Source: Planctomycetaceae bacterium (GTDB lineage Bacteria > Planctomycetota > Planctomycetia > Pirellulales > UBA1268). From it: 64,000 nucleotides of DNA. The notes below the pieces were generated by a model that saw nothing but the letters and a program-made list of their open reading frames with translations, had not been told where the DNA came from and searched no databases. Below are positions 37,139 through 59,010 of this stretch, piece after piece (position 1 is the first letter of the stretch; each line of letters opens with the position of its first letter). Position numbers and translations under genes: made by a program. The stretch lies in contig CANHCU010000004.1 in assembly GCA_947459185.1 (NCBI GenBank), positions 1,673 through 65,672 of the forward strand, given 5' to 3'.

Positions 37139-38812
37139 TTACCCGCCGGCGGCCGGTGTCGGCACTGGCTGCAATGGCGGCGTGGCCGCGGGCGGTGCTG
37201 GCGGGGTCGTCGCGGGCGGCGATGGCGGCTGGATCAACCGCCGCAACAGCCTCCCGCGGCGGGGAGGCTCGGCCTGCTGTGGGTTCGCCGCCTCGGCAGC
37301 CTGGCGTTCGGCCCGCCGCTTCGCCACCTCGCCCAACACGCCGCCCACGAGATCGATGACCGCCTCAGCGGTGGGATCGGCCTTCATGTCGGGCGGCAGC
37401 GCAGACTTGATCTTGTCTGCCGGGGATGGCGTGCCAGCCTGCTGGCCGGGGGCTGCGTTGGCCCCGTCATCAGCCGGAGCAGAAGCCGGTTTTGTGGCAT
37501 CGGGCGTCGCCGTTTTGGAATCCTTTCCCGCGGAGGCATCGGGCTTCCAGGCGGGAGCAGGCGGTGCCTGCGGCCGTGGTGGCCCGGCCGGCTGCCGCAC
37601 TGCCTGCTGCCCACCGGAGCCGCGCAGCCGATCGATGAGTTCTGCCACCACGCCGCCCGCATTGGCCCGCAGTGAGCCATCGAAATCGATGCGGGGTTCG
37701 CCGAGGAAGCCACCGACGCCCACGGAGAGCGTCCGCCCCGAGAGGGCCGCCAACAGCGGCCTGTCCTGCGGCAGATCGGCCGGAATGGGGAGTTCGAGCT
37801 TGATATCGAGTTTCTTGTCGTCGAGGCCCACCGAGCCGCTCGACCGGATGTCGAGCCGCTGCCCCGGCTTCGCCAGTGGCACCCCAAATGCCAGCCCCTT
37901 GTGCGCCATCCGGCGGTCGGCGAGTGCAAACTCGATGTGCGATTCGTCGGCGATCCGGATCGACTGCGGGATTGGCAGGTTGACCGGCAGCGACTCGATG
38001 ACTCGCTGCGCGAGCGGTCCTGGGCCGAGATCGACGGCGTGCATCGCGAGTACACCAGAGAGATGCCCACCCTCGGGGGCGCCCACCGGCAACGTGGCGC
38101 CGTTGATGCGAAGCGAAAACCGTCCGCTGGTCCGCGTGGCGTTGGCCATCACCGGCGCGATGTAGGCCAACACGCCCTGCGCCACCGCCGGCTCGAGTTT
38201 CGCATCGGCCAAAAGCTGCACGGGCTCGACCGTCCATTCGCTCCGCGTCCCGCTCGCCGAGGGGGCGAGCGCTGCCCGCACGTGGATCGGCTCGCTCACC
38301 CATGGGTCGTCCGCCCACGGGCCGATCATGCGGACGATCGCCCCGACCACGTCAAGTTGCATCCTGACCGCTCCAGGCTTTCCATTGTGGGGGCGGGCCG
38401 CCGCGCCCGGGCCTGCAAGGGCCGGAGAGAACAGCCCCTTGAGGTTGGAATTGCGGTCGGCGTCAAACTCCACAGTGGCGTCAAGCCCTTCCACACGCAC
38501 GCGGCCGAGATCGCCGAGCGAGAGGATGATGCCGGCGATTCCGTGGCTCAGTTCCACACGTTTGATGGAAGCCGGCTCGCGACTGCCGTCGTGCGGCACG
38601 ATGTGGATGTCTTCGAAGACCATCGGCCCGACCCAGCCGAGCTGCACGCTGCCGAAGCGCACGGCGGCCTGAAGCGCGGGCGCGGCGTTGGAGATGAGCT
38701 TTGAAAGCCGGGCCGGGCTGGACAAGAGCCAGGGCAGGCTGCCGATTCCGAGCACGGCGATGACGGCGAGGGCGGCCAGCGTGGCCTTCACCTGCGACGA
38801 CAGAAATGACAT
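37139..38812 (-). CDS. N-terminally anchored envelope protein (AsmA-like architecture), Pro/Ala-rich C-terminus
   Basis: Start MSFLSSQVKATLAALAVIAVLGIGSLPWLL (TM anchor), then VRFGSVQLGWVGPMVFEDIHIV, reminiscent of AsmA N-termini. The ORF extension over the tRNA region was rejected. Confidence 0.45.
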   Translation of the reverse strand: MSFLSSQVKATLAALAVIAVLGIGSLPWLLSSPARLSKLISNAAPALQAAVRFGSVQLGWVGPMVFEDIHIVPHDGSREPASIKRVELSHGIAGIILSLGDLGRVRVEGLDATVEFDADRNSNLKGLFSPALAGPGAAARPHNGKPGAVRMQLDVVGAIVRMIGPWADDPWVSEPIHVRAALAPSASGTRSEWTVEPVQLLADAKLEPAVAQGVLAYIAPVMANATRTSGRFSLRINGATLPVGAPEGGHLSGVLAMHAVDLGPGPLAQRVIESLPVNLPIPQSIRIADESHIEFALADRRMAHKGLAFGVPLAKPGQRLDIRSSGSVGLDDKKLDIKLELPIPADLPQDRPLLAALSGRTLSVGVGGFLGEPRIDFDGSLRANAGGVVAELIDRLRGSGGQQAVRQPAGPPRPQAPPAPAWKPDASAGKDSKTATPDATKPASAPADDGANAAPGQQAGTPSPADKIKSALPPDMKADPTAEAVIDLVGGVLGEVAKRRAERQAAEAANPQQAEPPRRGRLLRRLIQPPSPPATTPPAPPAATPPLQPVPTPAAGG

Positions 38813-39084: not shown

Positions 39085-39157
39085 GCGGGCGTAGCTCAGT
39101 TGGTAGAGCGCTAGCTTCCCAAGCTGGATGTCGAGGGTTCGAGTCCCTTCGCCCGCT
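39085..39157 (+). tRNA. tRNA-Gly (anticodon CCC)
   Basis: Hand-folded cloverleaf. Acceptor GCGGGCG/CGCCCGC, D arm GCTC-AGTTGGTA-GAGC, anticodon arm CTAGC-TTCCCAA-GCTGG, T arm GAGGG-TTCGAGT-CCCTT, discriminator T. CCA is not encoded. Confidence 0.92.
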
Positions 39158-39168
39158 CTGTCTTCCCG

Positions 39169-39312
39169 CCCGCAGTGCCATCCATGGCCACTGCGGGCTG
39201 ACGGGAATGCTTCCCGGAGAGAAATGGTGCCAGCCACCAAATCTGGGCAAGATGCCAGCTTCTCTATTTTTGGTGGCTGGCACCTTTTCCCGTGCCATCC
39301 ATGGCCACCGCG
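39169..39312. repeat. Composite repeat 3' of tRNA-Gly: direct repeats flanking a 16-bp perfect inverted repeat
   Basis: cccgcagtgCCATCCATGGCcactgcggg (39169-39197). ggtgccagccaccaaa (39226-39241) pairs with tttggtggctggcacc (39269-39284). cccgtgCCATCCATGGCcaccgcg (39289-39312). Confidence 0.85.
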
Positions 39313-39314
39313 AT

Positions 39315-39527
39315 TCACGGAACGAGACGCTCAGCCCGGCGGGCCGCCCATGCCGAAGCCCGATTGAAGGCCAATGCCAAGATGGCCGAGCCGGCGGCGT
39401 AGTACAGCGGCCTCGAGCCATACGCTGCGTCTTTCGGATTGATTGCGACCAGGAAAAACAGGACGACCGACGTCACGCTCGTCAGCGACAGACCGGTGAA
39501 AACGACGCTCCAGGCATCCCACTTCAT
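39315..39527 (-). CDS. Small two-TM hypothetical protein, last gene of the rhodopsin/carotenoid operon
   Basis: MKWDAWSVVFTGLSLTSVTSVVLFFLVAI...YYAAGSAILALAF. Lies 47 nt downstream of crtB. The 3' end runs into the repeat next to the tRNA. Confidence 0.35.
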   Translation of the reverse strand: MKWDAWSVVFTGLSLTSVTSVVLFFLVAINPKDAAYGSRPLYYAAGSAILALAFNRASAWAARRAERLVP

Positions 39528-39574
39528 GACAAGACTCCATGTTTGTGTATCGAACTTTGAAAACCCGCACACGC

Positions 39575-40490
39575 TTAACCCTGCACCGATACTCCATACT
39601 CCGCGAGCAGTCGTTCTGCCGCGGCGAGGGCTCGCCGGGCCGAGTCGTCAAGCTGTATCGGCCGATTGCCGCCGGTAGGGGTGAGCATGGCGCGGGCGAA
39701 GATCTTGAACTTCTCCAGCGTCGATACCCGCGCCCGCTCGTCGAGCACCTCGAAGCCGCGCCCTCTGATCTTCGTCCCGATCGCGCGATAGATTCTCGCC
39801 GCCGCCCGGACAGCCAGGCGAGAATCGGTATCGAGCCCGCTGATGCCCGCCTCGCCGGCAGAGTAGTAGCTGTCGGCGACTTCGAGGATCGTCTGCACAC
39901 CCCGCCGTACCTGCCGTGGGTCGGGCGGCCCACCGCCGGGCCGCAGCCCGTCGGTCCATTCAAGCGGCAGGTAGCAGCGAGACCGACGCCAGTCTTCCGC
40001 GACGTCGCGGGCGATGTTGGTCAGTTGCATGCCCATGCCAAGCGCCGCCGCGTGGGGGAGATGGCGGCGATCCGCGAGGCCGAGGACAGGACACAAGAGC
40101 ACGCCGACCGCGCCGGCGACCCGAAAGCAGTACAGCAGGAGGTCGGCCTCGTGAAAGCCGGCCGCCGGCGTGAGGTCCGACCGCATCCCATCGAGCAGGG
40201 CGAGGGCCGCGTCGAGTGGCAGGTCATTTCGGCCGACGAGTTCTGCCAGCCAGCGGCTCTCGGGGGCGACCGGGCTGTTTCCACCGGCGATCTGGCGGAC
40301 GTCCTGCGTGGCCCGTTCGACGAACTCCAGCGCCTGCTGCGGCGAGGCAGCGGTATCGACGCCGTCGTCGCACCACCGACACCACGCGTAGAGCCGCTCG
40401 ACGTCGGCCCGTTTGCCGGCGGGCAGCAGGCGGCTGGCAAACGAGAACGAGCGGCTGTGCCGCCGGATCGACTCACCCGCTGTCGGGCTG

Positions 40491-40507
<17 letters not shown>
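39575..40507 (-). CDS. crtB: Phytoene synthase
   Basis: SRSFSFASRLLP, LYAWCRWCDDGVD, QLTNIARDVAEDW. Start MSSPVSS overlaps the crtI 3' end by 17 nt. Confidence 0.9.
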
Positions 40508-42037
<1,530 letters not shown>

Positions 42038-42041
<4 letters not shown>

Positions 42042-43036
42042 AGAAGAGCCTCCGCCCTCGTCGGCTCGATGGCCACCCGCAGGGCGTCGCAGATCGCTGC
42101 CAGCGGAATGGCTTCACGGGCTCCGCCCGTCGCAGCAGTGAGCCTGTCGATTGCCCGGTCGAGCCGGGTGTTGATCGCAGCCACCGCCCGGCGGTGGGTC
42201 GCTTCCAGCAGATCCTTGGCGAGCGGGCGAAACTCAGCCCGCTGCTCTTCCGATTGCCGCAGCCGGCGCTGCCACACTGTGAACTGCTGGGCCGACACTT
42301 CGCTTGCGGCCCAGGCCCACGGCCAGGTGACACGGCGGTTGCGGAGGTCGTCGCACCGATCCGACCCTTCGAGCAGTTCGCAGAGCTCGTCGAGGTCGTT
42401 TTTCATTTGCAGGCAGATGCCGATCCGGCAGCCGAAGGCGGCTACGGCTTTGAGCGTCTGCCGGTCTCCCGCGGCGGCCTGGGCACCACACCACGCGGCC
42501 AATGACGCGAGGCGGCCGGTCTTCCAACGCGAGATCGCCAGCGCCGTGACCTGGGCTTGTCGCGGCGTGACCTCGTCGATCCGCGTGGCGAGGTCGATCG
42601 CCTGCCCCTCGTGACATTGCCGTGCCACCGTGATGAACCTGCCCACGAGCGCCGCCGACCGCGTGGGATCGTCCAAGGCGGCTGACGCCAGTTCCAGAGC
42701 GCGGAAATACATCCAGTTGCCAGCGTTGACGGCCCGGGCCGGCCCGATCACCTGATGCAGCGCCGGCTGGCCGCGGCGGGTGAGCGATTCGTCCTCGAAG
42801 TCGTCGATCACGAGCGAACCAGCGTGCAGGAGTTCGACCGCATCGACGATCAGCGAGGGCGCCGCGGAGCGGCCACCGGCAAATGCATAGGACTCCTCGA
42901 GCAGAGTTGCCCGAAGCCGCTTGCCACCTACGCCGGGATAGAGGTCGGGCGCGAGTTGGAGGGCCTTGGACCAGCCGTGCCCTGTGCGGGTGGTCTGGTG
43001 CGTCGCGCCGGCGAACCCGAGGAGATTTTTCGTCAT
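42038..43036 (-). CDS. crtE: Polyprenyl (geranylgeranyl) diphosphate synthase
   Basis: First Asp-rich motif LLHAGSLVIDDFEDESLTRRG. Second motif is the variant QMKNDLDEL. ATGA overlap with the crtY stop. Confidence 0.8.
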
Positions 43037-44223
43037 GTCGGCAGCGGCCCCGGGAGTGAGACAAACGATCTGGCAAAACGAATCGGCGCCAGGCCCATGG
43101 GCGGCCAGCCAATCATGATCCGAGCCGCATCGGTGAACGTAAAGCGATGCGCGTAAAACCGGGCGATTCGCGCTTCCGGCAGGACACGGTAGAACCGCCG
43201 GAAGATCTTCCAGCGGTCTTCTGGCCTGACCAAGCAAAAGAGCAGCCGGTTCAGAAAGCGGGCGAATCCTCGCCGCAGCCGGTCCTTTGCGACCGCAGAG
43301 GCGACCTCCGCGCCGACTCGGTCCGGGCATGCCCGGGCGACGAGTTCCGCGAAGCGAACGGCCAGCGGCATCGAGTATCCCGTGGCGGCGTGGTACCAGC
43401 CGCCGGCATAGCCGCCGGCTGGCGACCGCCCCTCGCGCCGGGCTGTGGCTGCATAGGGCATCGGGAGACACCCCCGCTCGGTTCGGATCAGCTTCGCCGA
43501 TCCTGCGTCGGCCTCGGCCAGCCGAGCCGAGATCAGCGAGGCGGCCCGCGATTCATCGCACGCCGGCTCCTCGTGGAACCGGGTGTACTCGAGCAGCACG
43601 CGATCAGGACCGAGCGGGAGTTCGTAGAGAAATTCGAAGCCCGCTGCCTGGTCTGCCGGGACATCCATGACAGTCGGTTCCGATGCCGGCCAGCGCCGAG
43701 CAGTCGCATACTCGTGGCCGATGAAGGTCTGATAGCCTGCTCCGCTCGGCGCCCCTGCCTCCGCCCGACCGCGACAGTCGAGGACAGCACGGCAGGAGAT
43801 GTCGGTGGTCCCGCCGAGTCTCACCGCGGTCGGCGAGAGGATCTCACACGACTCGCCTGTGCGAACGACGAGCCGGCCGGGGCGAGCCGCTCCCCCCGCT
43901 CCGCCTGCCAGTGACAGCGTCGCCTCGCGGAGGCGGTCGGACGTGATCGTCGCGTAGGAGATTTTGACTCGCCGCGACAGCGTCGGAAACCTGACGCGAT
44001 AGCCGGGCCAACGGTGGGCGACCAGCGGGTCAAACCAGTTTCTCGCCTGTTCGTCGACGTCTGTCTCGTGGAACGACCAGGTGTGATTGCCGCACAGTTC
44101 AGCGGCCCGTTCGAGGAGCAGGACTGTTGCCTCCGGCCGGTGCCAGGCCAGAGCATGCGCCAAGAGACAGCCTTGAAGACCACCGCCCACGATGCAGTAG
44201 TCGAACTCCGTGACAATTGTCAT
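43033..44223 (-). CDS. crtY: Lycopene beta-cyclase (CrtY type)
   Basis: FDYCIVGGGLQGCLLA dinucleotide fold, GNHTWSFHETD. ATGA overlap with the blh stop. Confidence 0.88.
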   Translation of the reverse strand: MTIVTEFDYCIVGGGLQGCLLAHALAWHRPEATVLLLERAAELCGNHTWSFHETDVDEQARNWFDPLVAHRWPGYRVRFPTLSRRVKISYATITSDRLREATLSLAGGAGGAARPGRLVVRTGESCEILSPTAVRLGGTTDISCRAVLDCRGRAEAGAPSGAGYQTFIGHEYATARRWPASEPTVMDVPADQAAGFEFLYELPLGPDRVLLEYTRFHEEPACDESRAASLISARLAEADAGSAKLIRTERGCLPMPYAATARREGRSPAGGYAGGWYHAATGYSMPLAVRFAELVARACPDRVGAEVASAVAKDRLRRGFARFLNRLLFCLVRPEDRWKIFRRFYRVLPEARIARFYAHRFTFTDAARIMIGWPPMGLAPIRFARSFVSLPGPLPT

Positions 44224-45215
44224 GCGGGGCTCCCCGAGGCTATGCGGGGTTTCAAGTTCATGCGGGGCTTGACGTGCAGCGACTGCATCCGCCGCCGGAC
44301 AGACGCCTCGCACAGCGGGGCGACGCCGTGCAGGAGCAGATGCGGCACAGCCACGGCGCTCAAGCCGACAAAGGTCGCCCGAATGAGCGTGCCATTCCAG
44401 CCCGCCCCGCCGAGCACGAGCCACGCGGCCAGCCCGACCAGAGCGATCGCCCCCACGGTCAAGGGCGCAAGGCTTCGGACTAATTCCGGCCAGCTCTCGC
44501 CAAGTTCACGACGAAGTCGCTCAAGGCCCCGCGCCGAGTGCCAGCCACAGAAATAAACCGGGAAGCTCACCAGCGGGCTCGTGACGGCGAAGAGCACCAC
44601 CAGTGATGCGACCAACGCATTATCGGCGAGCAAGACCCGCCGCCTCCGCCCGGTGCTTCTGCAGGCCATCAGGCCCTGGAACGCCCAGGCGGCCGCCGCA
44701 AGCGGCAGCATGATCCACGAGCAAGCCGTCAGCACGCTGATGGCCTGCTGGATGGCCGGGCCCGAGCCCCCCGGCGCGGTCAGGCCGAGGATCGTGGCGA
44801 CGTCCGTGGCGCGAAACAGCAGCGGCGTCCAGACCACGAGGCCTCCTCGTGCGAATCGGAACACCGGCCGCATGCCCCGCGGACCAACAGGGAGCCGCGG
44901 CTCTTCCTGGCCGAAATGCCAGGCTGAAGCCAGAAAAAATGCCACCACCGTGGCGGCCGGCGCCACGAACCAGCCGCACACAACCACCACCGCAACCGTC
45001 AGATACCCGGCCAGAAACACCGGCAGCCACGCAGTTCCAAGAACCGGTTCGAGCCGCGGCCGGGCGAAGCGATGGTCGGCCGCGCCGTGCGGCAGACCGA
45101 TCAGCGCGACGAGAGCCGCCAAAACGCCGGCCGTGACGCCGGCAGTGGCCTGAGAAAAAAAGAACGCGGCCCCGATAATAGCCCAAGAGAGCAAGATTAC
45201 CGAGGCCGCGTGCAT
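44220..45215 (-). CDS. blh: Beta-carotene 15,15'-dioxygenase (Brp/Blh family), retinal-forming
   Basis: Polytopic membrane protein with conserved His sites LIGLPHGAADH, SAWHFGQ, CGWHSARG and VPHLLLH. Starts 34 nt after the rhodopsin stop. Confidence 0.85.
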   Translation of the reverse strand: MHAASVILLSWAIIGAAFFFSQATAGVTAGVLAALVALIGLPHGAADHRFARPRLEPVLGTAWLPVFLAGYLTVAVVVVCGWFVAPAATVVAFFLASAWHFGQEEPRLPVGPRGMRPVFRFARGGLVVWTPLLFRATDVATILGLTAPGGSGPAIQQAISVLTACSWIMLPLAAAAWAFQGLMACRSTGRRRRVLLADNALVASLVVLFAVTSPLVSFPVYFCGWHSARGLERLRRELGESWPELVRSLAPLTVGAIALVGLAAWLVLGGAGWNGTLIRATFVGLSAVAVPHLLLHGVAPLCEASVRRRMQSLHVKPRMNLKPRIASGSPA

Positions 45216-45249
45216 GGAAACACTATTCTTTTGCAGAGGGTCCCGCCGC

Positions 45250-46107
45250 TCAGACGGTGCCGTACGCCTCACCGTGGGCAGTCTTCGTGCTCTTGGCCTT
45301 GGCGATGAGATAGATCAGCACGCCGAAGCCCGCCTTGGCGGTCATGTCGGCGATCGCGTAACCAATCTGCAGGCCAACGACACCATTGGCACCCGTGACG
45401 CCATTGGCAGCATTCGCGGTCCCGGCCTTCGCCGCCAGGGCATCGGGCGTGCCACCGAGCGCGTAGGCGATCGGGTAGACCGCCCAGGTGACCAGGATCA
45501 CCAGACGGGCGATCTCAAGGAGCTTGCGAGCCGCGGGCGGCTGGCTGTCGAGCGAATTCGTCAGTTCCGTCCAGAGCACATAGAGAATGTAGAAGAACGG
45601 AATCGACGAGAGCCCACCCCAAATAACCCGCTCGGACCAACGCGACGGATCGGAGATCACCTCGCCCGGATAGCCGAGCGCAATCATCAAGGCCGCGGCG
45701 ATCACCAGCCGAGTCAGCAGACTCGTCGCCTTGGCCGAATGCAGTCGCAGGACGGCCACGAGTTCGACCATCAGCAGCGGCACCGTCAGAATCCAGTCGG
45801 CATACCGATAGAAGTCGTTGAAGGCGGCGCCGGTGCCCTTATACCCAGTTGCGCCAACCAGCGAGTAGGCATCGTGCCAGCTGTGGCGGATCATGAAGTA
45901 GTGGTAGCAGGCGATCGAAACCACGATGCCAGACACCAGCAGAGCCGGACGGTATTCCTGATCAACGTGCGAACGGGCCATGAACAAGAACAGGGCGGCC
46001 GCCCCCATCGTCGCGACAGTCATCGAAAAGATGTTGTCTACTGCGTTGTATTGGAGCACTGACAGGTCGGGCATCGCCGACCCAAGCAAACAGAAGCCTT
46101 CGATCAT
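45250..46107 (-). CDS. Microbial rhodopsin, xanthorhodopsin/Gloeobacter-rhodopsin clade, outward proton-pump type (DTE)
   Basis: Seven TM. IACYHYF (His partner), FNDFYRYADWILTVPLLMVEL (D-T-E, Leu at the tuning site), LGYPGEV, VIWGGLSSIPFFYILYVLW, WAVYPIAY, IADMTAKAGFG (Schiff-base Lys). AGGTGA RBS. Confidence 0.93.
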   Translation of the reverse strand: MIEGFCLLGSAMPDLSVLQYNAVDNIFSMTVATMGAAALFLFMARSHVDQEYRPALLVSGIVVSIACYHYFMIRHSWHDAYSLVGATGYKGTGAAFNDFYRYADWILTVPLLMVELVAVLRLHSAKATSLLTRLVIAAALMIALGYPGEVISDPSRWSERVIWGGLSSIPFFYILYVLWTELTNSLDSQPPAARKLLEIARLVILVTWAVYPIAYALGGTPDALAAKAGTANAANGVTGANGVVGLQIGYAIADMTAKAGFGVLIYLIAKAKSTKTAHGEAYGTV

Positions 46108-46266
46108 CGCTTCACCTGTTTTCAATATGGTGTTGGAAAAACTGCAGCCGCTTCGCTCCCTCGGCAACGATCACCAGATCCAAGGGCAAGCCACAACCGG
46201 CCGGCCTCTTGCAACGGATGACTCCCCCTCCGAGAGGGTCTAAGCGACTCCCTAAACAATCGCGAC

Positions 46267-46295
46267 ATAGTAGCCCGTTAGGGACATAACGGCAA
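46267..46295 (-). promoter_or_regulatory. Candidate sigma70-type promoter for the rhodopsin operon
   Basis: Minus strand reads TTGCCG - 17 nt - TACTAT, about 160 nt upstream of ATG 46107. Planctomycete promoter rules are poorly known. Confidence 0.3.
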
Positions 46296-46428
46296 GCGGA
46301 TACCGACTGAGAAGCAGGTTCAAACCCTCGCCGACGGCGACACAGCAGCGGCATAAAGACCGCTTTTCCTACGATATCGCCCGACTCGGCAGGATGTGGG
46401 CCACTGTCTTCAAGAGACGTCCCTGCCC

Positions 46429-47553
46429 TCAGTAGACGTCTTTGAGGTAGCGTTTTTCATTTTTCATGAGGGTTTCCGAGACCCACTCGTCGGCCTGATC
46501 AGGCGTTTTACCGCCATGCTTGGCCACGATCGTCACCAGAGATGCATGAACGTCTTTGGCCATTCGCTTTGCGTCGCCGCAGACGTAGAAGAAAGCACCC
46601 TCGTCCAGCCAGCGATAGAGTTCAGCACCCTCTTCTTCCATGCGGTGCTGCACATAGATTTTGTCGGCCTGATCTCGGGAAAATGCGGTGGAGAGTTTGT
46701 GAAGGAGTCGGGATTTCTGGGCAGCCCGAAATTCCTCGCCGTAAAGGAAATCGGTTTTCGCGTGCTGATCTCCGAACAAGAGCCAATTGCGACCCGAGTG
46801 GCCATGGATGGCACGGTGCTGGAGAAAGCCTCGAAACGGGGCGACACCAGTTCCCGGGCCGACCATGATCATGTCGCGATCTGGTGGTGGGAGATGAAAA
46901 TGGCGTGTGGGTTGGACATAGACGGGGACTGACGACTGGTCGGCCAGATCGGCGAGGTAACCAGACGCGAGGCCCTTTTTGTGCCGACCGTGGGACGTGT
47001 ACTGAACGAGGGCGACAGTAAGGTGAGCCTCTCCGGGACGGTGGTCGGGCGAGGACGCGATTGAGTAGAGACGCGGTGCAATCGTGTTCAGGAGACCGGG
47101 AATTTCCGCGGGCTCAAAGTGCACTCCCGGAGCATCACGAAGAACGTCGATCACGTCCCGGTCGAAAATATAGTGGTCGAACTTTTTGTCATCGGCACAA
47201 ACGTCCTGGAATCTCTGCTTTGCCGGGCCCACAGCTTTTTCCGCCACAGCTCGAACAAACTTTTTCCTCACACGGTTGAGCACGGCAGAGGTTGCAATTG
47301 TTTCGTGCAGGGCCGCATCGTTTTGAAGGCCCAACGTTTCGACGAATTCACTCACCAAAGGTTCGGGGTTCCGCGGCACGACGCCGAGGGCATCGCCACA
47401 GGTGTACGTCGGACCCGCGGAGCCTAAATCGATGACGATGTGGCGGGTATCTTTGCTCGAACCTTGCTGGTTGAGTCGGCGATTTTCACGAAGCCGCGAG
47501 GCAAACGGGTTGCGCCGACCGAAAGCCGTCTGGGGAGTGGGGAATTCGGCCAT
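46429..47553 (-). CDS. Stand-alone FAD/NADPH-binding reductase, CysJ C-terminal (FNR-like) module without flavodoxin domain
   Basis: DTRHIVIDLG, PRLYSIASSP, MVGPGTGVAPFRGFLQ, FYVCGDAKRMAKDV, C-terminal RYLKDVY. Collinear with my recollection of the E. coli CysJ FAD/NADPH half. Confidence 0.85.
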   Translation of the reverse strand: MAEFPTPQTAFGRRNPFASRLRENRRLNQQGSSKDTRHIVIDLGSAGPTYTCGDALGVVPRNPEPLVSEFVETLGLQNDAALHETIATSAVLNRVRKKFVRAVAEKAVGPAKQRFQDVCADDKKFDHYIFDRDVIDVLRDAPGVHFEPAEIPGLLNTIAPRLYSIASSPDHRPGEAHLTVALVQYTSHGRHKKGLASGYLADLADQSSVPVYVQPTRHFHLPPPDRDMIMVGPGTGVAPFRGFLQHRAIHGHSGRNWLLFGDQHAKTDFLYGEEFRAAQKSRLLHKLSTAFSRDQADKIYVQHRMEEEGAELYRWLDEGAFFYVCGDAKRMAKDVHASLVTIVAKHGGKTPDQADEWVSETLMKNEKRYLKDVY

Positions 47554-47624: not shown

Positions 47625-48584
47625 TCACCGTGCCAGTCCTTCTTTCTCTCGGGGGGGCAGGGCATTGCCTTCCGGTCGTTTCCCCTGTTCCAGCCTGGCG
47701 ATCGAACTGAACCAGCTAAACACGCCGAGAACCACGACCCCATAGACCATAGCGACGAGCGCAACGACAAGATCGTAAGGCTTTGGTGTCGACAAGGATA
47801 CACGGAGAAGCACCGTCGAAATAACGAACCCCGCGTTCCGAAAGACATACTCGTACCGATCGTAGTAGGACAGTGACACGATCAGAAGAAACACGTCTGA
47901 AAAAATCATGAACTCGAAGAAGAGCGGGAAGAAAAAGAGGTCCGGATTCTGCGGCGGATGCGGCTGACCTATGACCGTCGCCGGCACGATTCGCAACCAA
48001 CTCGCGAAATTGAGTGCGGCGAGTCCTACCAGGACGAAGAGCAGCAACACGGCAACGGCTTTTTTCAGCTCGATGAAGCCGTCGAGATTTTTCTCAATCG
48101 AGATCTTGGGCGTCCTCTGGCGAATCAGGGTGAATCCGGTAACGATTACGAACATCGCCACAGCACCCACCATGTCGAGCAACACCGCGCCGGCTGCTGC
48201 AGGTTCTGACAGCCAGTTTTCTATGTCTTCAAAGCCTCCGATGTCTTTAAAGACACGACGCACGATGATGAGCGACATGATCTGATACTGCTTGGCGATT
48301 TCTCCGGTATGGGAATTCGCGATGGCGAAAACGAGGAGAATGACCTCGTAGAAAAGAATGATGCTGAACGGTGTGTAGACCGCGTGAAGAGGGCTGCGAT
48401 CGACGCCTTCAAGGATCGTCTGCGGCATGTCGGGCAGATTCCGAACGGCCGCGATGAGCAGGAGATGCATGAGAAAGCCACCTGCGGCGGCAATCACCAC
48501 ACCTTTTTCGAACCAATCCTGTTTCGAGCATTCCGCCAGCCGATCGAATAACGTGGCCAGGAGATGGCGGACTGATAGAAACAT
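47625..48584 (-). CDS. Polytopic membrane protein of unknown function (~8 predicted TM)
   Basis: Clean 319-aa ORF with repeated hydrophobic helices (FLMHLLLIAAV, FSIILFYEVILLVFAIA, LLDMVGAVAMFVIVTGF, VAVLLLFVLVGLAAL, LFFFPLFFEFMIF, VVALVAMVYGVVVLGVF). No family recognised. Confidence 0.6.
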   Translation of the reverse strand: MFLSVRHLLATLFDRLAECSKQDWFEKGVVIAAAGGFLMHLLLIAAVRNLPDMPQTILEGVDRSPLHAVYTPFSIILFYEVILLVFAIANSHTGEIAKQYQIMSLIIVRRVFKDIGGFEDIENWLSEPAAAGAVLLDMVGAVAMFVIVTGFTLIRQRTPKISIEKNLDGFIELKKAVAVLLLFVLVGLAALNFASWLRIVPATVIGQPHPPQNPDLFFFPLFFEFMIFSDVFLLIVSLSYYDRYEYVFRNAGFVISTVLLRVSLSTPKPYDLVVALVAMVYGVVVLGVFSWFSSIARLEQGKRPEGNALPPREKEGLAR

Positions 48585-48697: not shown

Positions 48698-48735
48698 AAA
48701 AAAAAGCACCCCGCACGTTGAAACGTACGGGGTGC
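48698..48735 (-). terminator. Intrinsic terminator after the fasciclin gene
   Basis: Minus strand: gcaccccgtacgt-ttc-acgtgcggggtgc (one mismatch) followed by T8. Confidence 0.75.
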
Positions 48736-48792: not shown

Positions 48793-49281
48793 TTACGGCA
48801 GAATCACGGCGTCGATCACGTGGATCACGCCGTTGCTCGTCTTGATGTCGGTCTTGGTGACGTTCGACATCCCCTTCGCGGTGCCGACCTTCACGCCGCC
48901 CGTGGTGGAGATCTTCACAGCCGCTCCGCCGGCCGTCTTGGCTTCCGTGAGCTTGACGACGTCAGCCGCCATCACCGAGCCCGGCACGACGTGGAGCAGC
49001 AGGATTTCCTTCAGCTTGCCCTTGTTTTCGGGCTTGAGGAGGGTTTCGAGCGTGCCAGCCGGCAGCTTGGCGAAGGCTTCGTCGGTCGGAGCAAAGACCG
49101 TGAACGGTCCGGCACCCTTGAGGGTATCGACCAGTTCGGCAGCGGTGAGGGCGGCGGCCAACGTCTTAAACGAGCCGGCTCCGACAGCCGTCTCGACGAT
49201 ATCAGCAGCCCGACCGACCGACATCGAACCAATCAGGCAGCAGGCCATCGCCACGATGGCGGAAAAACGGGACATCTTCAT
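48793..49281 (-). CDS. Secreted fasciclin (FAS1) domain protein
   Basis: Signal [72 protein letters not shown]. Confidence 0.9.
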
Positions 49282-49536: not shown

Positions 49537-50799
49537 TCAGCGGCCCGCCCACGCGGCCTCGATCGCGTCGCAGGCGAGTTCGAGGCCGTCGGCATCGGCT
49601 AGCCTGGCGGCGACGTCGCGGCAGCGGGTCGCCACGGCCGAATCGTCGAGCAGCCCGCGAATCATCTCGGCGACCGCCGGCCCACGAAAGCGTTTTGGTG
49701 GCAGGCTCTTCCCTACGCCGAGGCGTTCGATGCGGGCTGCGTTGTCGCACTGATCGAAGCCCATCGGCATGATCACCTGCGGCACGCCCGCCGCGAGCGC
49801 CTGCGACATCGAGCCGATGCCGCCGTGGTGCGCGAGCAGGGCCGATCGCGCGAGCAGCCAGCGAAATGGCACGAAATCAACGTGCCGCACGCCATCGGGC
49901 AGCGATGTCGGCACCTGCTCGGGAAACCGCGTGAGCAGCAGGCCGCGACGGCCAAGCCGCAGGCAGGCCTCGGCGGCGGCTAGAAAGAAGTCGCGTCCAT
50001 ACACATTGGCCGAGCCGGGCGTGAACACCAGCGGCGGCGGGCCAGCTTCGATGAACCGCACGACATCGGCCGAGGGCTCGACCACGCCCTCCTCGCTGTA
50101 AAGCGGAAACCCGGCGAGTCGCGTCTGGGGAGGCCAGTCTCGCTGCCGCGGCGCAAACCACTCGGGAAACATCGCGACCAGTCCCAGCGGCGAATGCATC
50201 CACTCGCGAAAAACACCGCGGACCGGCGGCAGACCGAGACGGCCTCGAAACTCGTTGAGCCACGGGCAGATCGCGCGATCCGAGACGCCATCGACAAGCT
50301 GCCACTGCAGTCGCCGAAACCAGGCCGGTCCGCGGTGCACCGGCAGCACCGGCAGCCGTGGGCCCTCGAAGTCGCTGCGAAAGAGCATCGGCGAGAGGTG
50401 AACGCTTACGAGCGGGATGCCCTGCGCTTCCTGGGCGACACGCGCTCCGAAGGCGAGGCTCGACCCACCAACGAGCGTGCGGCCCGGTGTCTGGTGGTCG
50501 AGGATGCTGCGATACACAGGCTCGAGCAGCGGGCGGATCGCCAGATCGATGATCGTTCGCGCGCCGTGGATCGGATGCCAGATCCGCGGGTTGCGAATCA
50601 TCTCCCGAAAGTCGCTCTCTGGTAGCGGATCGACGAACTCCAGGCCCGCCTCTTCGACGAGCCTGCGGAAATACCCGGCCGTGATGACCGTCACCCGATA
50701 GCCGCGCCGTCGCAACACCCGCCCCAGGCCCACAAAGGGATGCACGTCTCCCGAACTGCCGATGGTGCAGAGGATGACATGGACAAGGCTGTCATCCAT
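49537..50799 (-). CDS. GT1-family (UDP-glycosyltransferase/MGT-like) glycosyltransferase
   Basis: VILCTIGSSGDVHPFVGLGRVLRRRGYRVTV. C-terminal HHGGIGSMSQALAAGVPQVIMPMGFDQCDNA nucleotide-sugar signature. Confidence 0.85.
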   Translation of the reverse strand: MDDSLVHVILCTIGSSGDVHPFVGLGRVLRRRGYRVTVITAGYFRRLVEEAGLEFVDPLPESDFREMIRNPRIWHPIHGARTIIDLAIRPLLEPVYRSILDHQTPGRTLVGGSSLAFGARVAQEAQGIPLVSVHLSPMLFRSDFEGPRLPVLPVHRGPAWFRRLQWQLVDGVSDRAICPWLNEFRGRLGLPPVRGVFREWMHSPLGLVAMFPEWFAPRQRDWPPQTRLAGFPLYSEEGVVEPSADVVRFIEAGPPPLVFTPGSANVYGRDFFLAAAEACLRLGRRGLLLTRFPEQVPTSLPDGVRHVDFVPFRWLLARSALLAHHGGIGSMSQALAAGVPQVIMPMGFDQCDNAARIERLGVGKSLPPKRFRGPAVAEMIRGLLDDSAVATRCRDVAARLADADGLELACDAIEAAWAGR

Positions 50800-50800
50800 G

Positions 50801-52204
50801 CTAATTTTGGCCGCTCTTGCGGAAGTCCCAGGGGGCGACAGGGCTAGGCTGGGCCCAGAGGCCGAGCCGTTGCGACTGGGCCTGCGACTGCAGGGCCGCG
50901 AGCGATGTGTCACGGGAATAGTCTACGTAGTGCCAGGCGTTGCCGGTGGCAACCATCTGCCGGTTGACGTCAACGCCGTTCGAGGAGAGGTGGCCGATCC
51001 AGCGGCCGTAGCGGTCCTTGCCGTCTTCCGTCACCTCGACCGTCTTGCCAAACACCATCTCCGCCAGCACCTCGCGAGACACCTTGCCGTAGTCCTGGCC
51101 GATCTCCGGCGCGTCGATCTCCGCCAGCCTCACCTTCTGCTGCTGGTTCGACTCGTCGAGGCAGGTAACCGTGTCGCCGTCGTGCACGCCCACCACACGC
51201 CAGAGATGTGGACCTACGGAGCGGTTCGCCGACGACTGCATCGGCGAGACACTCACCGGCTGCGCGGGTGTTGACGACGGCGAGATCGGCGTGGGAAACG
51301 ACGAGGCTGGCGACGCGGGAGGGACCGGCGGCTGCGTTGCCGTGGCGATGGCGGCTGCCGAACCGGCCACCATCGGCGGCGCTTCCGTTGACGATGCCCA
51401 CTGGCTCGGCGGTGGCGCCGCCTGAGGGACTCCCGGCGGGGTCTGCTGGACCGGTGCCCACGATGCTGATGATGGTGCTGGTGTAGGCGGCGGTGGTGCC
51501 AGCGCCGGGGCCAAGGGCTGTGGCTGATAGGTCGGTGGTGCCGAAGCGAACGACGTGGCTGGCAGCGTTCCCTGCGGCGGCACGATCGGCGTGCCGGTGA
51601 GCGCCTTCGACCCCGGAGGATATTGGTAGGGCACCGGCTGATAACGGGCCACCGTGGCCGGCGGCAGCGTGTAGGTCGCTGCCGGCGCGCCCTGCGTCTG
51701 ATAGTTCCAGCCCTGCATCGATGCCGGCTGTGTCGCCATCGGCATCGCCTGCCGTCGATTCACCTGCGATGGGCTGGGCATGCCTGCCGCCGCGGCAAGC
51801 ACGGGGGGCCCGATCTGATAGGTGAAGACGTAGGTGGGCGAGTAATACATCGTCAGGGGACGGCCATCCGGTCCGACGCCCTGATAGGGCACGGCCTGCG
51901 GCGTCCAGCCGGTAGGAATGGCGCCGCCCTGGATCACGGCTGAAGGAAGCGCTGGCGCCTGCCAGTAGGGATGCGAGCCGCCTCCGGCCGTCGCTGTGCC
52001 CGACACACCGCCTGTGGCCCAGGCATTCACCGCCTGCGTCGCGGGTGTCGTGGCGACGGGTGATTGCGCGGAAGCGCCGCGGCCGGCCGCGCAGAGGATG
52101 ACCACTGCCACGAGCCGGACGTACAGAGAACCCCAGCGATGTCGGCGTCCCTGCCGCACGTTGTTCGCCCTCCTGGCGACGCCAGGGTTGTAACAGCCCA
52201 CCAC
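50801..52204 (-). CDS. Exported protein: ~330-aa Pro/Gln/Ala/Thr-rich region + C-terminal staphylococcal-nuclease (SNase/thermonuclease) domain
   Basis: VVGVHDGDTVTCLD, KVRLAEIDAPEIGQDYG, DRYGRWIGHL, NRQMVATGNAWHY, LGLWA. Stop is 1 nt from the GT1 start. Confidence 0.8.
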   Translation of the reverse strand: MVGCYNPGVARRANNVRQGRRHRWGSLYVRLVAVVILCAAGRGASAQSPVATTPATQAVNAWATGGVSGTATAGGGSHPYWQAPALPSAVIQGGAIPTGWTPQAVPYQGVGPDGRPLTMYYSPTYVFTYQIGPPVLAAAAGMPSPSQVNRRQAMPMATQPASMQGWNYQTQGAPAATYTLPPATVARYQPVPYQYPPGSKALTGTPIVPPQGTLPATSFASAPPTYQPQPLAPALAPPPPTPAPSSASWAPVQQTPPGVPQAAPPPSQWASSTEAPPMVAGSAAAIATATQPPVPPASPASSFPTPISPSSTPAQPVSVSPMQSSANRSVGPHLWRVVGVHDGDTVTCLDESNQQQKVRLAEIDAPEIGQDYGKVSREVLAEMVFGKTVEVTEDGKDRYGRWIGHLSSNGVDVNRQMVATGNAWHYVDYSRDTSLAALQSQAQSQRLGLWAQPSPVAPWDFRKSGQN

Positions 52205-57917: not shown

Positions 57918-58967
57918 ATGCCTGCGTTGAAATCATCCCGTCCGCCCAAGCCCAACATCAGGCACGTTGCGCAGGCCGCTGGCGTGTCGTTGATCACAGC
58001 GTCGCGTGCGATCAGCGGCCGGGGGAGCGTGGCCGAGGCAACTCGCGAGCGAGTCTTGGCAGTGGCGCGACGGCTCAAATATCGGCCTAACCGGCTCGCC
58101 TCGGCCGTTCTGGGAGGCCGCTCCCGCACCGTCGGCGTCATGGTGCCGATCGGATCGTGGTTTCAGGCGCAGATCATCCGCGGCATCCACGACACACTCT
58201 CTGAGCAAGCCTATCTGCCCATCGTCCATTTCCACGGGAATGGCCCCGGCGCACTCCGCGACGGCGAGGAGCTGGCCTTTTTGCATCGCCTCATCGAACA
58301 TCGGGTCGATGGCCTCATCTTCTTCCCCTCGGATGAGTCTGTGACGCAGAACTACCTCAAGGAAGTCTGGGAGCAGGGTCTGCCGCTTGTCGCCGTCGAT
58401 CGCCGGCTCGCCCGGACAAATGCCGACTTCAGCGGCACCGATGACGTTGCGGGCGGTCGCATGGTGGCGGAACACCTGCTTTCGCTTGGCCACCGACGCA
58501 TCACGCACATCACCGGAGAACGCTGGGTTTCGACCTACTGCGACCGCCAACGCGGCTTCGAGTCAGTCATCCGCGATGGCACCGATGTGACCTATCGATG
58601 CGTGGAATGCGAGAAGGGCGACTGCGAGGCCATCGCCAAAGATATTCTCCAGGCCCCCGACCGACCGACTGCGATATTCGCCGCATCCGACAAGATGGCG
58701 ATTCATGTCTATGCGGCTGCTGCGGCGGCTGGGCTGCGGATTGGCAGCGACCTGACAGTCGTCGGATTCGCCGACCTCATGGAAGCCCACGGGCTGCGGC
58801 CGCGGCTGACAACGGTCAGGCAGGACGCAGTCGTGATCGGCGCCAACGCGGCGAGGCTGCTCCTCGACAGGCTCGAGGACCGCGTCTCGTCCAACGAGCC
58901 GCGAGCGATTCGGTTGATGCCTGAATTCGTGATCCGTGATTCGTGTGCGACGGTGTCATTGACCTAA
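57918..58967 (+). CDS. LacI-family transcriptional regulator
   Basis: HTH IRHVAQAAGVSLITASRAISG, followed by a periplasmic-binding-protein-like sugar-binding fold (VGVMVP..., VDGLIFFP). Confidence 0.9.
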   Translation: MPALKSSRPPKPNIRHVAQAAGVSLITASRAISGRGSVAEATRERVLAVARRLKYRPNRLASAVLGGRSRTVGVMVPIGSWFQAQIIRGIHDTLSEQAYLPIVHFHGNGPGALRDGEELAFLHRLIEHRVDGLIFFPSDESVTQNYLKEVWEQGLPLVAVDRRLARTNADFSGTDDVAGGRMVAEHLLSLGHRRITHITGERWVSTYCDRQRGFESVIRDGTDVTYRCVECEKGDCEAIAKDILQAPDRPTAIFAASDKMAIHVYAAAAAAGLRIGSDLTVVGFADLMEAHGLRPRLTTVRQDAVVIGANAARLLLDRLEDRVSSNEPRAIRLMPEFVIRDSCATVSLT

Positions 58968-59010
58968 ACGATTGTATTTTTCAGTTCTTTCTTTTTTGAG
59001 GGGGGGTTCT

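Follow-up and report, generated by a model that had tools for sequence, protein, structure and literature searches.

A probable xanthorhodopsin photosystem operon in a variable tRNA-Gly segment of a freshwater Pirellulales planctomycete

Clusters that combine an opsin gene with crtEIBY and blh into a "photosystem" are classic in proteobacteria. Among the rhodopsins themselves, the closest solved relatives of the protein discussed here are Salinibacter xanthorhodopsin (XR), Gloeobacter rhodopsin (GR), Kin4B8 and psXR, which we take to be outward proton pumps. Three reports show that such proteins have also been seen in planctomycetes: Andrei et al. (2019, PMC6461901) described green-light rhodopsins from freshwater members of the phylum, and others are reported in metagenome-assembled genomes (MAGs) from Lake Mendota (bioRxiv 2022.08.01.502354) and from marine samples (PMC13043013). 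The protein also appears by name in public MAG records. We analyzed a 64,000-nucleotide stretch of planctomycete DNA (the window), for which an initial annotation, made from the sequence alone, had supposed rhodopsin phototrophy to be undescribed in this lineage; given reports from 2019, 2023 and 2026, that claim of novelty fails. The window very probably holds the whole of a xanthorhodopsin photosystem, encoded on the chromosome of a freshwater planctomycete of the order Pirellulales. Within that order the operon is most probably an old unit whose genes are inherited together, and here it lies in a flexible 9.5-kb segment. The operon is real and complete, yet it is a standard trait of the order that metagenome surveys had already recorded, neither new nor recently imported.

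The initial annotation had described seven co-directional minus-strand genes with very tight junctions, and both points are borne out. The open reading frames are present, contiguous and mostly overlapping, in the order rhodopsin-blh-crtY-crtE-crtI-crtB-small membrane protein gene, and six of them are identified by family (Table 1). Alignment with homologs, together with gene calls made on independent contigs, fixed the gene starts. In the sequence itself, 34 nt separate the rhodopsin stop from the blh ATG, ATGA overlaps join blh to crtY (44220-44223) and crtY to crtE (43033-43036), and crtI and crtB overlap by 17 nt (40491-40507). At the crtE/crtI junction there is a GTGA overlap (42038-42041), where crtI starts with GTG, or a 2-nt gap if an alternative ATG two codons inward serves as the start. 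These overlapping or nearly overlapping junctions imply a single transcript, which would begin at a conserved promoter-like site (46295-46267) and reach to the hairpin at 39221-39289. The candidate promoter is absent from the list produced by a consensus promoter scan; its two hexamers are conserved in position in closer relatives, and it would yield a leader of ~155 nt, with an AGGTGA Shine-Dalgarno sequence at its end, close before the rhodopsin ATG.

Table 1. Coordinates of the operon and neighboring features in the window
Feature	Position	Strand	Length	Basis or remark
tRNA-Gly(CCC)	39085-39158	+		ARAGORN; Rfam RF00005, 70 bits; convergent with operon
REP-like hairpin GCCCGCAGTG-CCATCCATGGC-CACTGCGGGC	39168-39198	+		begins 10 nt past tRNA
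Long hairpin, candidate bidirectional terminator	39221-39289	.		between operon end and tRNA; T-rich on both sides
Small two-helix membrane protein gene	39315-39527	-	70 aa	
crtB, phytoene synthase (assigned)	39575-40507	-	310 aa	Pfam SQS_PSY, E = 2e-61
crtI, phytoene desaturase	40491-42041	-	516 aa	Pfam Amino_oxidase
crtE, polyprenyl diphosphate synthase, assigned GGPP synthase	42038-43036	-	332 aa	Pfam polyprenyl_synt, E = 5e-38
crtY, lycopene beta-cyclase	43033-44223	-	396 aa	Pfam Lycopene_cycl, E = 2e-60
blh, Brp/Blh beta-carotene 15,15'-dioxygenase	44220-45215	-	331 aa	Pfam BCD, E = 1e-45
Rhodopsin (xanthorhodopsin-family opsin)	45250-46107	-	285 aa	Pfam Bac_rhodopsin, E = 4e-41
Sigma-70-like promoter candidate	46267-46295	-		TTGCCG (46295-46290), 17-nt spacer, TACTAT (46272-46267); predicted
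CysJ-like reductase-domain protein	46429-47553	-	374 aa	Pfam FAD_binding_1 and NAD_binding_1
Planctomycete membrane protein	47625-48584	-	319 aa	GC3 0.67; within variable segment
Fasciclin-gene terminator, hairpin and T8	48698-48735	-		read from sequence
Fasciclin gene	48793-49281			

Across ~80 species-level genomes, each locus that is long enough shows the identical seven-gene order, which also recurs on contigs that were retrieved through the small protein rather than the rhodopsin. Carriers include cultured strains, namely SH139 and SH449 (complete genomes) and Rubripirellula obstinata (draft genome). In a comparison of 37 species, operon GC follows flank GC from 0.50 to 0.71 (r = 0.93), and rhodopsin GC3 follows that of the other operon genes (r = 0.94). 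Because the same order is found in ~80 Pirellulales species and GC follows each host, the lineage did not acquire the operon recently; it is a standard, old, co-inherited feature of Pirellulales.

A mosaic composition had been proposed, and one part of that proposal stands: the rhodopsin gene is lower in GC (61.4%) than the five other enzyme genes (66.7-69.2%). However, its GC3 (0.79) falls within the range of the other operon genes (0.75-0.86), and the deficit sits in codon positions 1 and 2, which points to the amino-acid composition of a membrane protein. The truly low-GC stretch lies at 45.5-49.5 kb, past the region covered by the initial annotation and into two upstream genes. The "mosaic" of the operon is thus amino-acid composition, not foreign DNA.

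The surroundings of the operon are variable. Three independent close-relative contigs lack the 9.5 kb in which the operon sits here: the fasciclin gene and its terminator stand right beside tRNA-Gly, and the backbone to the left and right of this empty site is conserved. The left-hand boundary of the variable segment is the fasciclin terminator, which is kept in these three relatives, with similarity stopping right past its T-run; the right-hand boundary is tRNA-Gly(CCC). The segment is flexible in this genus: some close relatives have it and others do not. Besides the operon it holds two upstream genes. One encodes a protein with only the FAD/NADPH reductase domain, matched below cut-off by TIGR01931 and NF004859 (E = 1e-116), and precedes the operon in the four closest relatives only. 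Its GC3 is atypically low (0.63), but this value is stable in all four and so gives no evidence of recency. The other encodes the 319-aa membrane protein, which has no match in Pfam, NCBIfam or PDB and an AlphaFold model with pLDDT of 50. A homolog adjoins the operon in about 28 related loci, and on three long contigs picked via this protein the homologs have no operon beside them.

As the initial annotation had it, the operon adjoins tRNA-Gly(CCC) and ends at a composite repeat. A 21-nt direct repeat, for which 0.01 matches are expected by chance, lies at 39175 and 39292 around an inverted repeat with 34-nt arms, which forms the long hairpin of Table 1 (16-bp core, 39227-39242 paired with 39271-39286). 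The intergenic region has a predicted fold of -84 kcal/mol (z = -5.8) and also gives a terminator-like match. The core of the REP-like hairpin has a degenerate second copy at 39290-39312, and the same element follows tRNA-Gly in six relatives (L091, L092, L099, L105, L109 and L110), with two copies in L092 and three in tandem in L109.

Could the segment have arrived as an island? The initial annotation had suggested so, and its model, once limited to exchange inside the order, would make the membrane protein, reductase and operon a genomic islet, transferred from another Pirellulales via a tRNA-Gly(CCC) hot spot. We consider this unlikely, although it is the most serious of the alternatives. 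The site itself is variable, as the empty contigs show, and other relatives hold different cargo at the same place. In L094 a phage-integrase gene abuts this tRNA, and in L092 the 3' 40 nt of the tRNA recur as a displaced copy, 1 kb away from an intact tRNA with the T-arm variant of L094; tRNA-Gly(CCC) is a proven integration site in relatives. Both upstream genes are low in GC3, and the operon is flanked differently in species that mostly share 73-97% identity with the window in their operon proteins. Against this, the window holds no partial copy of the tRNA-Gly 3' end (an att-type repeat), at the far end of the segment or elsewhere, and no integrase or transposase domain among the ~50 window ORFs scanned against Pfam, the latter as had been claimed. 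The operon's GC3 is native, and the reductase's low value is constant among its four relatives. Deletion is also a documented alternative: three relatives (L114-L116) retain only a crtB 3' fragment and the small gene, with an rve transposase near the remnant in two of them (L114 and L115).

The best solved relatives of the opsin are psXR (9wfa), XR (3ddl) and Gloeobacter rhodopsin (6nwd), with E = 1e-65 to 1e-69, and its identity to solved xanthorhodopsins is about 50-55%. It has the DTE proton-pump motif (D104/T108/E115), H69, D254, the Schiff-base lysine K258, L112 for green tuning, and G164, which aligns with the carotenoid-fenestration glycine G156 of Salinibacter XR. In 20 clade members all of these residues are invariant except L112. 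The sequence thus places the opsin in the xanthorhodopsin family as a predicted light-driven proton pump. G164 would keep the side window open, where relatives bind a carotenoid antenna, so a second chromophore is possible; Pfam scans of the window ORFs, those of the operon included, turned up neither a ketolase nor a hydroxylase gene that could serve an antenna carotenoid.

The enzymes that would supply retinal are assigned with differing precision. Three exceed their NCBIfam cut-offs: Blh (TIGR03753, 166 bits against 95), CrtY (the TIGR01789 equivalog, 268.6 against 215.2) and CrtI (TIGR02734 crtI_fam, 629 against 238). In Blh, H43, H100, H226, H292 and H296 are retained in 74-78 related loci. 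CrtE attains family-level thresholds and no NCBIfam equivalog cut-off; its first Asp-rich motif, DDFED, is conserved, and the second is NDLDE, not DDxxD, across the whole clade. Its chain length (GGPP) is assigned from operon context. The NCBIfam models for CrtB and for HpnD, a presqualene synthase, match CrtB equally well (both ~1e-50, both below cut-off), and its role in phytoene synthesis is likewise assigned from operon context.

The seventh gene encodes a 70-aa protein with no match in Pfam or NCBIfam and a conserved motif, G-x-SLT ... LF-xx-V-xx-NPK-xxx-Y-xxx-P-xx-YA. Wherever a related locus extends far enough, the gene comes after crtB; in about half of these loci (~22) the two overlap by 4 nt at the crtB stop. 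In 11 more distant loci, among them those of Rubripirellula obstinata and strains SH139 and SH449, it forms an in-frame fusion with CrtB. In the searches made it was not found outside Planctomycetota. Gene fusion and synteny suggest that it is most likely the detached C-terminal membrane anchor of CrtB.

Profile matches, conserved catalytic residues and a gene order kept in ~80 genomes all agree with the self-contained route from isoprenoids to a retinal-loaded rhodopsin that had been proposed for this operon. CrtE would supply geranylgeranyl diphosphate, as its family membership suggests, and CrtB would join two of these into phytoene, working with a two-helix anchor that in more distant Pirellulales is its own C-terminal end. 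CrtI would desaturate phytoene to lycopene, CrtY would cyclize lycopene to beta-carotene, and Blh would cleave one beta-carotene with O2 into two all-trans-retinal. Retinal would then attach to opsin K258 as a Schiff base, and green light (L112) would drive protons outward, D104, paired with H69, acting as the acceptor and E115 as the donor, which would contribute to the proton-motive force. Since crtE, crtB, crtI and crtY suffice for beta-carotene, the cluster might instead serve mainly as a pigment operon for photoprotection, with the rhodopsin as a sensor rather than an energy-conserving pump. This is very improbable: Blh is dedicated to retinal formation and its gene comes right after that of the opsin in all loci, the DTE pump motif is complete and includes a carboxylate donor (E115), Pfam and NCBIfam reveal no adjacent transducer or signaling gene, and the close solved relatives are all outward proton pumps by name.

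The planctomycete-like surroundings noted earlier are confirmed by hallmark families on the contig, with PSD/PSCyt and DUF1552 genes at 53.8-57.9 kb and a DUF1559 gene at 59-60 kb (side scanned, 53.8-60 kb), and the host belongs to the order Pirellulales, whose MAGs hold the closest loci (rhodopsin identity 97-98%). The exact window protein is present in metagenome assemblies labelled MEHR18-2. The window does come from a metagenomic assembly, and two related records are titled Chitinophagaceae, but an assembly or binning artefact that gave the planctomycete an operon not its own is scarcely credible when the fas-mem319-FNR-operon-tRNA-Gly-p557 order, tRNA junction included, is repeated on an independent ENA contig from another sample, its left part recurs in three MAGs (L004, L005 and L017), the hallmark families share the contig with the operon, and cultured strains carry the operon in their genomes.

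How does this locus compare with what has been described? Like tRNA-associated genomic islands, the segment abuts a tRNA 3' end, is present in some relatives and absent from others, and has a relative with an integrase-bearing element at the same tRNA; unlike them, the window has neither an integrase nor a direct repeat of the tRNA end, and the operon's own synonymous-site composition is not atypical. The opsin belongs to the same family as Salinibacter ruber XR (3ddl), GR (6nwd), psXR (9wfa) and Kin4B8 (7ytb), with E = 1e-60 to 1e-69, and shares with them the DTE motif, the His-Asp pair, the Schiff-base lysine and the fenestration-opening glycine. In contrast to XR-type pumps, there is no linked ketolase or hydroxylase gene in the window, and the helix F-G loop is longer, by 10 residues than in XR and by 15 than in psXR and GR; much of this loop is conserved inside the planctomycete clade. 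The rhodopsins reported from Planctomycetes MAGs come from the same phylum and habitat type (freshwater lakes, reservoirs) and are the same green-light, DTE, XR-branch proteins. Judging by their label, the MEHR18-2 assemblies may be reservoir samples from the same research group. In their available text, the three papers cited above list rhodopsins but do not describe how the operon is built or how widely it occurs in Pirellulales, cultured strains included, nor do they mention the CrtB anchor or the variable site at tRNA-Gly. Finally, the proteorhodopsin and xanthorhodopsin photosystem clusters of marine and freshwater bacteria have the same gene set, a self-sufficient route from isoprenoid diphosphate to retinal beside the opsin. 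The window differs from them in its contiguous, mostly overlapping opsin-blh-crtY-crtE-crtI-crtB order and in having, as an addition, a two-helix membrane protein associated with CrtB, either as a separate protein or as a fusion.

The opsin is assigned by its sequence to the xanthorhodopsin (XR) family. An HMM search for the bacteriorhodopsin-like family matched PF01036 over residues 44-289 of the 305-aa ORF, scoring 141 bits where the cut-off is 24.6. Among solved structures, its best matches are psXR (55% identity), Salinibacter XR (50%), Gloeobacter rhodopsin (GR), Kin4B8, and 5azd, a chain deposited merely as "Bacteriorhodopsin." K258, the Schiff-base lysine of helix G, and D254, its aspartate counter-ion, align with the lysine and aspartate of XR (...IADVLAKAG...). 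Helix C, RYADWILTVPLLMVEL, carries D104, T108, and E115, i.e., the DTE motif of acceptor Asp, Thr, and donor Glu, and H69, the histidine paired with the acceptor, lies within ACYHYF. All of these residues are invariant in the clade, as is W163-G164, the aligned counterpart of a W-G pair in XR, psXR, and GR. At G164, the residue of XR is the glycine responsible for its open carotenoid window; we take the fenestration glycine, which stands in place of Trp, to be G156 in XR and G178 in GR. L112 occupies the site that tunes proteorhodopsins to green light. The planctomycete opsin differs from its relatives in the F-G loop, which exceeds that of XR by 10 residues and those of psXR and GR by 15. We predict that it works as an outward proton pump that could accept a carotenoid antenna.

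The products of the operon match Pfam families Bac_rhodopsin, BCD (Blh), Lycopene_cycl, polyprenyl_synt, Amino_oxidase (CrtI), and SQS_PSY. Curated models agree with the initial annotation for Blh (TIGR03753, 166 bits against a cut-off of 95), CrtY (the TIGR01789 equivalog, 268.6 against 215.2), and CrtI (TIGR02734 crtI_fam, 629 against 238). CrtI is a phytoene desaturase by this model, with a predicted four-step desaturation to lycopene. Blh residues H43, H100, H226, H292, and H296 are kept in 74-78 related loci, and we take these conserved histidines to be the iron ligands in this family. CrtE matches the Pfam family and reaches no NCBIfam equivalog cut-off, while CrtB matches SQS_PSY and scores alike, and below every cut-off, with the CrtB models NF045921 (179 bits) and NF042419 (154 bits) and the presqualene synthase model HpnD (172 bits). 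Since both proteins fall below the curated cut-offs and CrtB does no better on its own models than on HpnD, the two assignments rest on operon context. The first Asp-rich motif of CrtE, DDFED, is kept across the 74-78 related loci; the second is NDLDE, not DDxxD, across the whole clade.

Three genes near the operon, in the window or in relatives, were considered as further parts of the pathway, and two of them were rejected. The GT28/UDPGT gene, a candidate CrtX-like glycosyltransferase, is a backbone gene: it is present in relatives without the operon at this site, and in other species it shows no linkage to the operon. A fatty-acid-desaturase (FA_desaturase) gene 3′ of the small gene in some relatives, a candidate CrtW/CrtR-type oxygenase, occurs in one sub-clade only (L012 and L114-L119), and its His boxes (HECGH, HALHH, and HVAHH) are what we take to be an acyl-lipid desaturase pattern. 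The 319-aa membrane protein is a weak lead as a photosystem part, e.g., an antenna-carotenoid enzyme acting with the reductase. About 28 related loci have a homolog adjoining the operon, its position and orientation varying from locus to locus, but none of the homologs on three long contigs has a rhodopsin nearby. It has no match in Pfam, NCBIfam, or PDB, and its AlphaFold model has a pLDDT of 50.

The small gene that ends the operon has no family match in Pfam or NCBIfam. It has 212 detectable homologs, all of them small proteins, and the few that carry organism labels are Planctomycetota. The protein has two hydrophobic helices and a conserved NPK loop. Its gene lies 3′ of crtB in all loci, including those retrieved via the small protein rather than the rhodopsin; in about 22 of them, the two genes overlap by 4 nt at the crtB stop. 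In 11 more distant loci, the small protein is instead the in-frame C-terminal end of CrtB, joined by a linker of roughly 30-50 residues. Rubripirellula obstinata, SH139, SH449, and eight further, more distantly related Pirellulales share this fused form, a single ORF of about 370 aa or more, whose C-terminal 60 residues are homologous to the separate 70-aa gene product. The separate and joined genes thus form a gene fusion/fission pair and, by the logic of gene fusion, the small protein is probably a membrane anchor that works with phytoene synthase.

The seven minus-strand ORFs proposed initially were recovered, spanning 39315-46107. Gene starts were set by a 20-homolog alignment, gene calls from independent contigs, and the sequence itself, and the tight junctions read as first described. 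The rhodopsin and blh genes are 34 nt apart, ATGA overlaps join blh to crtY (44220-44223) and crtY to crtE (43033-43036), and crtI and crtB overlap by 17 nt. The crtE/crtI junction is a GTGA overlap (42038-42041); starting crtI at the ATG that lies two codons inward would make it a 2-nt gap. The tRNA-Gly(CCC) gene lies on the opposite strand. Between it and the operon is the composite repeat, a 21-nt direct repeat (39175 and 39292) around an inverted repeat with 34-nt arms, and this intergenic region is far more stably folded than shuffled sequence (z = -5.8).

At the other end of the operon lies a conserved pair of promoter-like hexamers, TTGCCG and TACTAT, spaced 17 nt apart. The leader that comes next is about 155 nt long and contains conserved blocks. 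Many relatives have an 8-9-bp hairpin and U-run about 35 nt before the rhodopsin start codon. A structured regulatory leader or attenuator was considered here and would be at most a tentative candidate: the window's own hairpin is unstable (z = +1.3), the leader as a whole has z = -1.6, RNAalifold gives -4.7 kcal/mol with scant covariation, and an Rfam search of the leader found no match.

Coordinates of features in the window and in loci of relatives (L numbers)
Feature	Location	Strand	Positions	Remark
Rhodopsin gene	window	-	45250-46107
blh	window	-	44220-45215
crtY	window	-	43033-44223
crtE	window	-	42038-43036
crtI	window	-	40491-42041
crtB	window	-	39575-40507
Small gene	window	-	39315-39527	70 aa; putative CrtB anchor
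Promoter-like pair and leader	window	-	46108-46300
tRNA-Gly(CCC)	window	+	39085-39158
REP-like hairpin	window		39168-39198
Degenerate hairpin copy	window		39290-39312
Inverted 19-nt REP-core copy	window		46798-46816	compared with 39290-39308 and 39175-39192
Reductase gene	window	-	46429-47553	CysJ-like
Membrane-protein gene	window	-	47625-48584	319 aa
Variable segment	window		48697 down to 39159	9.5 kb
Fasciclin terminator	window		48698-48735
Fasciclin gene	window		48793-49281
GT28/UDPGT gene	window		49537-50922
p557	window		37139-38812	557 aa
Second low-GC stretch	window		58500-60000	GC 0.58-0.60
Fused CrtB ORF	L078		15756-16865	equivalents in L072 and L076
Displaced tRNA 3′ copy and intact tRNA region	L092		6420-6520, 7445-7580
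Region of the phage-integrase-family gene	L094		2254-4037
Tandem REP-like hairpins	L109		2278-2440	three copies
Operon remnant	L114		8662-9210	equivalents in L115 and L116

Several lines of evidence place the operon in planctomycetes, as first suggested. The exact rhodopsin is present on ENA contigs from freshwater metagenomes. In a distribution scan taking one genome per species, 202 species had a relative, and the best 80 of the 202 are nearly all titled Pirellulales, Planctomycetia, or Planctomycetota, among them strains SH139 and SH449 (complete genomes) and Rubripirellula obstinata CECT 8602 (draft). The window itself carries housekeeping genes (fmt, def, der, rpsA, gltB/gltD, and scpB) and planctomycete hallmark families (PSD/PSCyt, DUF1552, and DUF1559). 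The contigs, the relatives' titles, and these genes together support the host assignment. Two metagenome-assembled genomes (MAGs) with a planctomycete-type operon, L010 and L070, are titled "uncultured Chitinophagaceae bacterium," and several others with it bear the title "Candidatus Kuenenia"; such names are probably placeholders or products of binning and do not denote the true hosts.

Is the operon foreign to this lineage? The initial annotation noted a mosaic composition, but a foreign signature does not survive analysis by codon position. The rhodopsin's lower GC sits in codon positions 1 and 2, and its third-position GC (GC3) is 0.79, against 0.75-0.86 in the other operon genes; the operon as a whole has GC3 like its flanks. 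Across 37 species with flanks of 0.51-0.72 GC, the GC of the operon tracks that of its flanks (r = 0.93, with a mean difference of 0.01), and rhodopsin GC3 follows that of the other operon genes (r = 0.94). Gene order, from the rhodopsin through blh, crtY, crtE, crtI, and crtB to the small gene, is kept in every locus of sufficient length, and the identities of the operon proteins drop in parallel with distance among related loci. The kept order, the native GC3, and the tracking of host GC argue against recent import into the lineage. Low GC3 is confined to the two co-directional genes upstream of the operon, the reductase (0.63) and the membrane protein (0.67), against about 0.8 in the rest of the window. 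The reductase is a 374-aa protein with a CysJ-like FAD/NADPH domain and without the flavodoxin domain; four relatives have the gene, and its GC3 is equally low in each. Elsewhere in the window, a second stretch of low overall GC contains the gene for a DUF1559 protein, which bears a methylation motif at its N-terminus and is of the pseudopilin-like kind typical of planctomycetes; a LacI-family regulator lies just upstream.

The site itself is variable. We compared it across metagenome contigs retrieved with p557, the gene on the far side of the tRNA, and found the backbone SNase-GT28-...-tRNA-Gly-p557 conserved. On one side, tRNA-Gly(CCC), p557, and three further genes form a conserved block; on the other, the nuclease-glycosyltransferase(-fasciclin) backbone is kept. 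In relatives, p557 (36-94% identity) always adjoins tRNA-Gly(CCC). This conserved protein matches no family, and its C-terminal third is rich in proline and alanine. L086, L087, and L096 have the fasciclin gene, with its terminator, about 100 to 700 nt from the tRNA, against 9.5 kb in the window, and similarity between the window and its relatives stops directly past the T-run of the fasciclin terminator and at the tRNA end. Other relatives have different cargo at the site, either a peroxiredoxin or a sugar-modification cassette 3′ of crtB and the small gene. L094 has a gene of the phage-integrase family whose end falls within or beside this tRNA, and L092 has a displaced 3′ 40 nt of tRNA-Gly(CCC) with the downstream hairpin 1 kb from the intact tRNA, which is a classical footprint of tRNA-gene integration. 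The intact tRNAs of L092 and L094 share a T-arm variant, GTGAGTTCGAGTCTCAT, unlike the window's. The integrase and the displaced copy show that this tRNA is a genuine hot spot in the lineage.

Thus, of the island first proposed at tRNA-Gly, presence/absence within a conserved backbone stands, but the recombinase, the tRNA-end repeat, and a host-unlike operon composition do not. No integrase or transposase domain was found in the segment or elsewhere in the window, in agreement with the integrase-free locus first described (about 50 window ORFs searched with Pfam), and a search within the window for the 24-nt tRNA 3′ end, allowing up to 3 mismatches, matched only the tRNA itself. Loss has also occurred: L114-L116 keep a 92-aa SQS_PSY (crtB) fragment, an intact small gene, and the fatty-acid-desaturase gene, remnants which indicate that the rhodopsin operon was lost by deletion in some relatives. 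A rve-family transposase gene lies near the remnant in L114 and L115; the neighbors in L116 differ. The 9.5-kb segment could reflect either insertion here or deletion in relatives.

The repeat beside the tRNA is part of this history. The hairpin GCCCGCAGTG-CCATCCATGGC-CACTGCGGGC recurs directly 3′ of tRNA-Gly in many relatives, with two copies in L092, and L109 has a REP-like hairpin, ACGCCCGCAGTGCCATCCATGGCCACTGCGGGCTGA, three times in tandem at 65-nt spacing directly 3′ of its tRNA-Gly. This recurrence and the multiple copies in L092 and L109 mark it as a REP-like element and part of the integration duplicate; it seems to be a lineage-specific repeat family. We speculate that the degenerate copy and the long hairpin between the copies are what is left of an earlier event. 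The REP core also occurs, inverted and perfect over 19 nt, in the reductase gene (chance expectation, about 0.01). This copy was considered as a recombination or inversion site and rejected, since it encodes RAIHGH, conserved in all relatives, and inversion would destroy the gene; the copy is possibly due to chance.

It is tempting to see in all this a Pirellulales-specific XR photosystem, with an anchor-tethered CrtB (fused, or split and translationally coupled), an antenna-capable pump, and a cassette gained and lost at a tRNA-Gly(CCC) hot spot. We offer this only tentatively, as a reading of sequence that we consider more doubtful than probable. The cultured strains have the complete operon, so the trait is directly testable. 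If the reading is true, R. obstinata CECT 8602, SH139, and SH449 could provide the first experimental demonstration of phototrophy in Planctomycetota. The operon places light-energy harvesting firmly among the genetic traits of an entire order of the phylum, whose members are abundant in lakes and usually viewed as plain heterotrophs. The fused and split CrtB-anchor forms provide a concrete, testable idea for the membrane attachment of the first committed enzyme of carotenoid synthesis, and the fasciclin/tRNA-Gly site offers a natural presence/absence system for the gain and loss of rhodopsin photosystems. The split/fused anchor, the antenna-capable opsin in culturable hosts, and the presence/absence polymorphism at a proven tRNA integration site are the points worth carrying forward.

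How does this compare with known systems? Rhodopsin phototrophy was initially thought to be undescribed in this lineage, but earlier reports exist, and public MAG records already annotate these proteins. Rhodopsins of freshwater Planctomycetes were reported in 2019 (PMC6461901), and planctomycete rhodopsins with DTE motifs on the XR branch were described from Lake Mendota (bioRxiv 2022.08.01.502354). In 2024, six other cultured planctomycetes were compared, and rhodopsin genes were found in none of them. Rubripirellula is mentioned once in an ecology paper that also mentions rhodopsin. Within the literature searched, the operon in cultured strains, its conserved anatomy, the CrtB anchor, and the variable tRNA-Gly site appear to be undescribed. 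Clusters of an opsin with crtEIBY and blh are a well-known layout, for which the term "xanthorhodopsin operons" is in use in one report (PMC13043013). The operon is an ordinary feature of a known type, and it extends, rather than changes, the accepted picture of rhodopsin phototrophy.
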